A stretch of DNA of 64,000 nt, taken from positions 43,023 to 107,022 of the IMG/VR virus record IMGVR_UViG_3300009370_000007; one strand, written 5' to 3'. Of this stretch, positions 60,859 to 61,343 are shown piece by piece. Below the pieces are notes generated by a model. That model did no database searches and had not been told where the DNA came from. It was given only the letters and a program-made list of their open reading frames with translations. Position 1 is the stretch's first letter; every line of letters begins with the position of its first letter. This DNA is from a virus. The position numbers and the translations under genes are program-made.

Positions 60859-60866
60859 TATTTATA
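60859..60866 (-). promoter_or_regulatory. Late promoter TATAAATA overlapping the terminator tail
   Basis: Plus strand tatttata. Confidence 0.6.
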
Positions 60867-60897
60867 AAAAAGACCGGGGAGTGGCAAGCTCCCCGGT
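60866..60897 (-). terminator. Intrinsic terminator closing the ncRNA candidate
   Basis: ACCGGGGAG-CTTGCCA-CTCCCCGGT-C-TTTTTT on the minus strand. Confidence 0.9.
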
Positions 60898-60908
60898 TTC
60901 GATTTCTT

Positions 60909-61325
60909 ATGACAGAACCCATTGAATGTCCAAGCAATCTATTTTTAATTAGATAGGAGAGTACGAGCGTTATCATTTACGCCAAAGCTGGAAATCATTG
61001 TCAATAAAGGTCTATGGTTGTGCCACCAACCTACTTTATTATAATTAAGACACGATCTTTCTTTGACTAAGCTCGCCTTTCTTATCGGTGCCAGTCACCG
61101 TCCCATTCGGGAAGACCCGTTGTCATCCCTGCCTTAGAATACTACTTCACAGACAGCAAAGTTTAGCCCCAACGAGATAGGGCAACTTACCAACTCTTCC
61201 ACGGGATCGCGATAATCCACTTCGCTACTAACCACAGTTATGGTGTTGGCTACTCGGCTCCCTTGGTAAGAAACTCCTTATATATTATTAGTATACTGGG
61301 TTCAGTATCGTTAAGGTTCTGTCAC
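60909..61325 (-). ncRNA. Candidate large structured non-coding RNA, ~417 nt, family not recognised
   Basis: No ORF in the track; 5' GTGACAGAACCT pairs with 3' GGGTTCTGTCAT; many internal stems with G-U pairs on the minus strand; terminator follows. Confidence 0.7.
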
Positions 61326-61343
61326 GATATTCTCCTGCTATGA

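Follow-up and report, generated by a model that had tools for sequence, protein, structure and literature searches.

A candidate uncatalogued structured RNA of about 400 nt at the rnh locus of uncultured marine T4-like phages

Structured RNAs of at least 400 nt with extensive covariation are rare, and the known classes are ribozymes, ribonucleoprotein cores and RNA-only cages. The phage-borne ROOL RNA has a length of about 580 nt. GOLLD and ROOL are often located near islands of transfer RNA (tRNA) genes, and many GOLLD members exceed 800 nt (bioRxiv 10.1101/2024.12.08.627333). On a smaller scale, a covariation-based survey from 2023 listed 10,006 csRNA candidates from intergenic regions of IMG/VR, with motifs of 29–151 nt only (PMC10690425). 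Here we describe an RNA of about 400 nt encoded on the minus strand of 64,000 nt of phage DNA (the window), which are the final 64 kb of the 107-kb virus record IMGVR_UViG_3300009370_000007 (positions 43,023 to 107,022; the completeness of the record is estimated at 59%). The RNA is real and strand-specific, its fold is conserved, it is present as a single copy in the record and it has its own terminator. Like GOLLD and ROOL it is a large, multi-domain, phage-borne RNA with strong covariation, but it is smaller, has no covariance-model match and is carried by marine T4-like myophages. With respect to the tRNA setting, tRNA genes are found 2.5–3 kb downstream of the RNA in sister phages and as a cluster in the corresponding slot of RNA-less relatives, and none is present in the 64-kb window. 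The csRNA catalogue draws on the same source and the same kind of evidence, and fragments of the RNA may be among its candidates, whereas the element described here is a unit of about 400 nt. The best reading is a stand-alone RNA, probably acting in trans, that represents a new, previously uncatalogued family.

The RNA is located within positions 60838–61343. These 506 nt form the largest internal gap of the window that is free of open reading frames (ORFs) of at least 60 amino acids (aa) on both strands, confirming the ORF-free gap of about 500 bp that had been pointed out by a model working from the letters and a list of ORFs only (the sequence-only reading). The neighbours of the locus are T4-type replication genes, and the RNA is transcribed in the same direction as these, including rnh and the gene of a small arginine-rich protein. 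The minus strand of 60866–61340 folds with a minimum free energy of -143.1 kcal/mol and a z-score of -3.72 against dinucleotide shuffles, none out of 100 being as stable. Folding of the plus strand is weaker (z -2.82).

A metagenome scan revealed a close relative, L066, with an RNase H 94% identical to that of the window and with a copy of the RNA at L066:804–1286 (89.5% identity). A protein search showed that closer RNase H relatives exist, about 40 of them with 65–98% identity. Searching IMG/VR with a 74% RNase H relative as query gave eight loci (L100–L107) in which the same slot is free of ORFs over about 400 nt. A profile of the two known copies (window and L066) matched these gaps with nhmmer E-values down to 4e-7. 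Homologues are thus present at the same locus in eight further metagenomic contigs. Together with the window, the nine distinct sequences make up three diverged sub-clades of one marine T4-like myophage group: the window with L066, L100–L105, and L106 with L107. In all cases the RNA is located downstream of rnh and of the gene of a small arginine-rich/acidic protein. The gene order in the sister clades is rnh, DUF6433, the small protein, the RNA, a terminator, an ORF of 150–177 aa and homologues of the 86-aa and 106-aa genes. The window sub-clade shows the same order minus DUF6433 and minus the 150–177-aa ORF, i.e. rnh, a 67-aa gene, the RNA, the terminator, an 86-aa gene (membrane/zinc-ribbon) and a 106-aa gene. 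Blocks common to the nine sequences are GAGUAGC..AA, UAGUAGCGAA, GGGAAGUAGU and CGG..ACUGG..CCG, and the helices between them change their letters in step.

The sequence-only reading had drawn a single closed unit, which in the window sub-clade comprises 417 nt (60909–61325, minus strand) from the 5’ to the 3’ strand of an end helix, P1. This picture had to be corrected, since the conserved RNA consists of three domains. Domain 1 (61186–61270, minus strand) is a three-way junction closed by CUUACCAA/UUGGUAAG. One of its arms, a hairpin, carries two AGUA/GAA internal loops in opposed orientation and a conserved loop containing GACUG; the other is a variable hairpin. In the alignment of domain 1, standard pairs account for 92.6% of cells, and both partners have changed in 12 of the 21 pairs. 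Covariation was scored at 0.484, compared to 0.05–0.15 when partners are slid by 1–3 columns, and none of 500 shuffles scored as high. The closing helix reads CUUACCAA/UUGGUAAG, CGUGAAUU/GAUUCACG or CAUAUUCA/UGAAUAUG depending on the sub-clade. A covariance model of this domain (R1), built from seven sister-clade sequences with the window excluded from training, locates the window copy at 61187–61269 with 35.9 bits and an E-value of 1e-7, which is rough owing to a shortened calibration, as are all E-values of R1 and of the second domain covariance model, R2.

Domain 2 (61086–61185, minus strand) contains four hairpins, GCCC/GGGC, CUGUCU/AGGCAG, UCCC/GGGA and CGGUG/CACCG. The long CUGUCU/AGGCAG arm is capped by a conserved 10-nt loop, AAGUAGUNNN, and the CGGUG/CACCG hairpin carries the invariant loop ACUGG. 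Counted in a plain MAFFT alignment made independently of the structure, paired cells amount to 83.1%, and both partners have changed in 10 of 28 pairs; the covariation score of 0.304 again exceeds that of slid partners (0.06–0.15). Domain 3 (60957–61084, minus strand) is a long irregular hairpin arm closed by GCGAGC (61071–61076) with GCUCGU (60963–60968), with AAUAAAG/CUUUAUU and GGUUG/CAACC at its tip. Since MAFFT mis-registers its strands between sub-clades, this domain was compared by architecture. Each sub-clade has a closing helix, middle helices and a tip hairpin, but the letters differ: GCGAGC/GCUCGU is replaced by UCGGGG/CCCUGA, AAUAAAG/CUUUAUU by UUUGUG/CACAGA, and GGUUG/CAACC at the tip by GUGUUCG/CGAAUGC or GUGCCUG/CGGGUAU.

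Over domains 1 and 2, G-U was found in 67 cells and A-C in 5. The folded molecule is therefore the minus-strand transcript, and the earlier strand argument, which rested on imperfect pairs being G-U on the minus and A-C on the plus strand, holds. Between the window and L066, identity amounts to 94% in domain 1 and 98% in domain 2, compared to 82% at the third codon positions of rnh and 72% at those of the 67-aa gene; the core is more conserved than adjacent third codon positions. All internal stems listed in the sequence-only reading are present in the window sequence. Conserved in relatives with compensatory changes are CTTACCAA/TTGGTAAG, ACCAT/GTGGT, GGATT/GATCC, GCCC/GGGC, CTGTCT/AGGCAG, TCCC/GGGA, CGGTG/CACCG, CGAGC/GCTCG, AATAAAG/CTTTATT and GGTTG/CAACC (DNA letters). 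Confined to the window sub-clade are the 12-bp end helix, ATACTG/CAGTAT, GCGT/ACGC and AGGAG/CTCCT, and ATCTA/TAGAT marks the slot of a variable hairpin.

The RNA ends at an intrinsic terminator (60866–60897, minus strand) composed of a stem-loop at 60873–60897 with nine pairs, seven of them G-C, followed by CUUUUUU (CTTTTTT in DNA). It begins 11 nt past the end helix, as had been claimed, and an equivalent terminator follows every complete homologue.

We also assessed membership in known families. Searching the whole window against the 4227 models of Rfam 15 at gathering thresholds gave no match; these models include RNase P, transfer-messenger RNA (tmRNA), 6S, signal recognition particle RNA, group I/II introns, T-box, cobalamin, GOLLD and ROOL, and further HEARO, OLE, raiA and IMES. 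With E up to 10, the RNA region gave only terminator-type and chance matches far below threshold, and with E up to 1 nothing was found on the RNA of four relatives. ARAGORN detected no tRNA or tmRNA gene in the window. A DNA similarity search across 50,697 phage records gave no match. Comparison with 16S, 23S and 5S ribosomal RNA (rRNA) of E. coli by short-word BLAST and with the family profile hidden Markov model (HMM) gave chance-level matches of 8–12 nt only and no HMM match.

Several other candidates were rejected. No ORF of at least 60 aa is found on either strand, the indels between window and L066 within the RNA measure 15, 1, 3, 1, 1, 1 and 3 nt, and identity between the two peaks in the paired core without being periodic; neither the gap nor the comparison of window and L066 gives a coding signal. 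A group I or II intron was dismissed, as the 67-aa gene ends at its own stop codon, the 3’ flank is the terminator and no intron model matches; in RNA-less relatives the genes flanking the slot stand as separate genes. The same holds for an intron splitting DUF6433, since tblastn of 18 DUF6433 proteins gave no match in any frame of the gap; sister clade B carries both DUF6433 and the RNA. For a type III toxin-antitoxin RNA, tandem repeats would be required, and none is found in 60700–61500.

Taken together, we consider it very probable that the locus is a functional structured RNA gene. The homologues, the compensatory changes, the conservation of the core, the terminators and the Rfam searches without a match support the proposal of the sequence-only reading that it encodes a functional large structured phage RNA, possibly of a new class. 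We also think it rather likely, with less assurance, that the product is an uncatalogued structured noncoding RNA of about 380–420 nt, discrete and trans-acting, which belongs to a narrow clade of uncultured marine T4-like myophages. In the window the RNA would probably be read through from upstream and end at its own intrinsic terminator. It would then be released as a discrete molecule acting in trans that offers its rigid conserved loops and its S-turn-type modules as binding sites to a partner, either a protein or another RNA, early in infection. The action in trans, the binding of a partner and the time of synthesis are inferred. Release as a discrete RNA and action in trans by binding are suggested by the invariant loops AAGUAGU, ACUGG and GACUG together with the two opposed AGUA/GAA internal loops beside G-C pairs, and by a setting that resembles that of phage-borne ornate RNAs. 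An AGUA opposite GAA beside a G-C pair, occurring twice and opposed, is what we take to be the letter signature of S-turn or loop E modules. In rRNA, such modules (loop E of 5S and the sarcin-ricin loop of 23S) are binding sites of proteins and factors. The RNA differs from these in that no rRNA model matches and no similarity to E. coli rRNA beyond chance is found, and the three-dimensional motif is read from the letters only.

It is unlikely, in our estimate, that the RNA founds a new class of large functional RNAs of marine T4-like phages with a complex activity of their own, either as a ribozyme or as an RNA-only assembly or decoy by which a translation or RNA-processing factor of the host would be captured via the paired S-turn modules. 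If true, its standing would be comparable to that of GOLLD, ROOL or OLE. Each new large structured RNA class is a candidate for new RNA biochemistry. The location among early replication genes of abundant uncultured ocean phages may reveal an RNA-run step of host take-over, and a compact, modular RNA with natural variants (an extra closing helix, an extra helix flanking domain 1) is suited to structure probing and cryo-electron microscopy.

Several points weigh against a discrete trans-acting RNA. Directly upstream of the RNA no promoter-like site was found on the minus strand of the window, so that the RNA would form the 3’-terminal part of the rnh/67-aa transcript, perhaps as a mere untranslated region, unless a promoter of another type is used. 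Promoter-like sequences of the sigma-70 type are found in the sister sub-clades, in L103 as TTGCCA-17-AATAAT, which ends about 7 nt ahead of the conserved core, and in L106 as TTGTCA-16-AATATT just upstream, but the number of such matches lies within that expected by chance for such scans and they are therefore only suggestive. The nine distinct sequences fall into three sub-clades and several are close to one another, so that the pair counts derive from few independent events. The RNA is known here from DNA sequence alone and the binding partner is hypothetical. RNA-less phages also carry the neighbouring small protein, which weakens the idea of a ribonucleoprotein formed by the RNA and the arginine-rich protein encoded upstream. 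Finally, a cis-acting leader would also agree with a terminator that has co-oriented genes behind it.

Such a leader or attenuator, of riboswitch or T-box type, would control read-through into the 86-aa and 106-aa genes in response to a ligand or macromolecule sensed by the folded domain. It would account for a structured domain with an intrinsic terminator directly behind it and then co-oriented genes whose conservation extends across the clade. S-turn modules are also known from T-box stem I. We nevertheless regard a leader as unlikely. Even with E-values of up to 10 allowed, no match to a T-box or riboswitch family was obtained, and a size of about 400 nt is far above that of any known aptamer. 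By inspection of the alignment (A8), no conserved segment complementary to the 5’ strand of the terminator, i.e. no antiterminator, was seen; C-rich tracts occur in some relatives and are missing in L102 and L106. The first downstream gene varies by sub-clade, with the 150–177-aa ORF intervening in L100–L107. The variable downstream genes and the missing conserved antiterminator argue against a leader and for action in trans. In addition, the next gene of the window (60577–60837) has an element of its own, TATAAATA, at 60859–60866 on the minus strand directly 3’ of the U tract of the terminator and identical in L066. We take it to match the T4 late-promoter consensus, so that this gene may be transcribed independently; as a putative late promoter, the element would serve that gene, and its position suggests a boundary between early and late transcription at the end of the RNA. 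A self-processing RNA, for instance a new ribozyme class cutting itself from the rnh transcript, would agree with a large multi-domain fold with many invariant unpaired nucleotides, and without a promoter of its own the window copy would need processing to become a discrete RNA. The ribozyme idea of the sequence-only reading thus gained no support here, and we find it quite improbable given that no Rfam ribozyme (hammerhead, twister, HDV, group I or II introns, RNase P) matched and that the CUGAUG string of clade B is not kept in the window or in L106.

The position among replication genes directly downstream of rnh raises the idea of a primer or origin RNA, a folded transcript that forms a persistent hybrid and starts phage replication like ColE1 RNA II or the T4 origin transcripts; in T4, ori(34) adjoins rnh. 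This seems highly improbable. The strong terminator directly 3’ argues for a released transcript, the GC skew does not turn at the locus and merely tracks gene direction, neither a DNA-hairpin block nor an unwinding element was seen adjoining the RNA, and the RNA is absent from five relatives that are 94–100% complete. Even less probable is a mobile-element remnant, either a miniature inverted-repeat element with P1 as terminal repeats or an ORF-less intron. Although the window copy is bounded by imperfect inverted repeats of 12 bp and the content of the slot varies among relatives, some having tRNA clusters there, some extra ORFs and some nothing, the 107-kb record contains a single copy, and the other sub-clades keep the core at the same locus but lack the inverted repeats. 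An exon context is lacking as well, and selection on the RNA fold is evident from the compensatory changes and the G-U bias. The least credible of these explanations is a non-functional spacer or decayed gene with structure arising by chance. Most relatives carry DUF6433 of about 140 aa after rnh and the window does not, which speaks for a decayed gene, but no frame of the gap resembles DUF6433 and clade B has both. Chance structure is contradicted by the conservation of the core above third codon positions and by covariation above the controls.

The periphery of the RNA differs between sub-clades. P1 pairs GTGACAGAACCT at 61325–61314 with GGGTTCTGTCAT at 60920–60909 on the minus strand by ten Watson-Crick pairs and a G-U pair at each end. 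The coordinates, letters and pairs given for it in the sequence-only reading are exact, but as a family feature it fails, because it is missing from both other sub-clades. Its 5’ strand GUGACAGAACCU (61314–61325, minus strand) is identical in L066 and absent from L100–L107, and its 3’ strand GGGUUCUGUCAU (60909–60920, minus strand) is found in the window sub-clade only. As P1 is identical in L066, this pair of sequences gives no covariation test of the helix. At 61311–61336, AGGAG is located 6 nt ahead of a mini-ORF (GUG ACA GAA CCU UAA) that coincides with the P1 5’ strand. Both are kept in L066, without sequence variation between the two copies, and are not found in the other sub-clades; translating the mini-ORF would melt the end helix. 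Instead of P1, the sister sub-clades have an extra helix flanking domain 1 (UCUAUAGA/UUUAUGGA, GCCAUAGA/UCUAUGGC).

Next to P1, a variable 5’ hairpin, AUACUG/CAGUAU, is located at 61293–61308 (minus strand). The 15-nt insertion of L066 rebuilds it as AUAAUG/CAUUAU, and an unrelated hairpin is found here in the other sub-clades. AGGAG at 61274–61278 (minus strand) is the 5’ strand of a proposed long-range helix with CUCCU (60955–60959), which is uncertain. GGAYC/GRUCC in sister clade B is a possible equivalent with one or two compensatory changes; this pairing, likewise uncertain, would form a pseudoknot by crossing the helix that flanks domain 1. The variable 3’ hairpin AUCUA/UAGAU (60937–60954, minus strand) is replaced in relatives by unrelated hairpins (GUCCCC/GGGGAU, UCUUGC/GCAAGA and others). 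Within domain 1, the variable hairpin at 61203–61217 (columns 53–75 of alignment A10) holds a palindrome of 6–8 nt in four of six variants (AUCGCGAU, CAGCUG, CCAGCUGG and AUUAAU). The palindromic loop is not above chance and provides no evidence of a kissing dimer, since shuffled hairpin middles yield such palindromes in 12–55% of cases.

We also analyzed the distribution of the RNA. Exact as well as relaxed and degenerate motif scans of IMG/VR returned only contigs already known; the motif-scan matches L186–L188 have no nhmmer match and were considered chance. With a 71% rnh relative as query, a scan of genome contigs yielded nothing but a Clostridia contig, which is unrelated. No additional copy was detected by R1 and R2 in about 175 loci flanking rnh, and the RNA is absent from the five nearly complete T4-like genomes according to the same models. 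A weak R2 match at 58338–58468 of the window is noise, as it falls within a zinc-ribbon ORF of 113 aa. Since motif scans and models find no more copies, the family is confined to one narrow clade within the data searched.

In about 60 IMG/VR loci with RNase H identities of 38–59%, DUF6433 of about 140 aa follows rnh directly, with no gap and no similarity to the RNA. Overall DUF6433 (PF20025, phrog_461; about 140–170 aa) follows rnh in nearly all relatives (L004–L065, L100–L107), whereas the window lacks it at this position. A search of the whole 107-kb record for DUF6433 gave no match, but neither did the control genomes, so that the negative is no proof of absence. The 150–177-aa ORF (L103:5632–6084, L107:5538–6071, L101:5622–6071) is present in the sister clades only, between the terminator of the RNA and the 86-aa homologue. 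It has no Pfam or PHROG family and shares a C-terminal ERP(T/S)L.EGFDD motif.

The tRNA cluster of RNA-less relatives is located about 1 kb downstream of rnh, with 6 tRNAs in L110 (5418–6354) and 19 in L111 (5405–7723). The tRNA genes of the RNA-bearing sister clades are those for Leu, Thr or Lys (L181, L184, L185). On a further sister-clade contig ARAGORN called a tRNA with a four-base anticodon (atga; L182:11559–11634), which may be a frameshift-suppressor-like tRNA or an artefact. At L103:6935–7065 the Rfam tRNA model matches over 131 nt with 44.5 bits (model positions 1–71), and ARAGORN finds no tRNA there; the match may represent a tRNA gene into which about 60 nt are inserted.

Upstream of the RNA, rnh (61551–62399) encodes a T4 RNase H with the Pfam domains 5_3_exonuc_N and RNaseH_C. 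The nearest cultured phages, Methylophilales phage Melnitz and Synechococcus myophages/cyanophages, have RNase H proteins only about 54% identical, and the phage carrying the RNA therefore represents an uncultured marine T4-like lineage. Between rnh and the RNA, the 67-aa gene (61344–61547, minus strand), a constant neighbour on the 5’ side, encodes a basic N-terminus, an arginine-rich KKRRNRRR segment and an acidic tail, and its protein aligns end to end with its homologues. A 104-aa protein at 59975–60289 matches Sigma70_r4 only (Pfam, E 5.6e-10) and may be a stand-alone region-4 protein, e.g. a sigma mimic or appropriator. The adjacent genes at 58143–58484 (113 aa) and 58496–58681 (61 aa) both start with MP.Y.YEC..C, have CPxC pairs and resemble tandem paralogues encoding zinc ribbons of the FmdB type.

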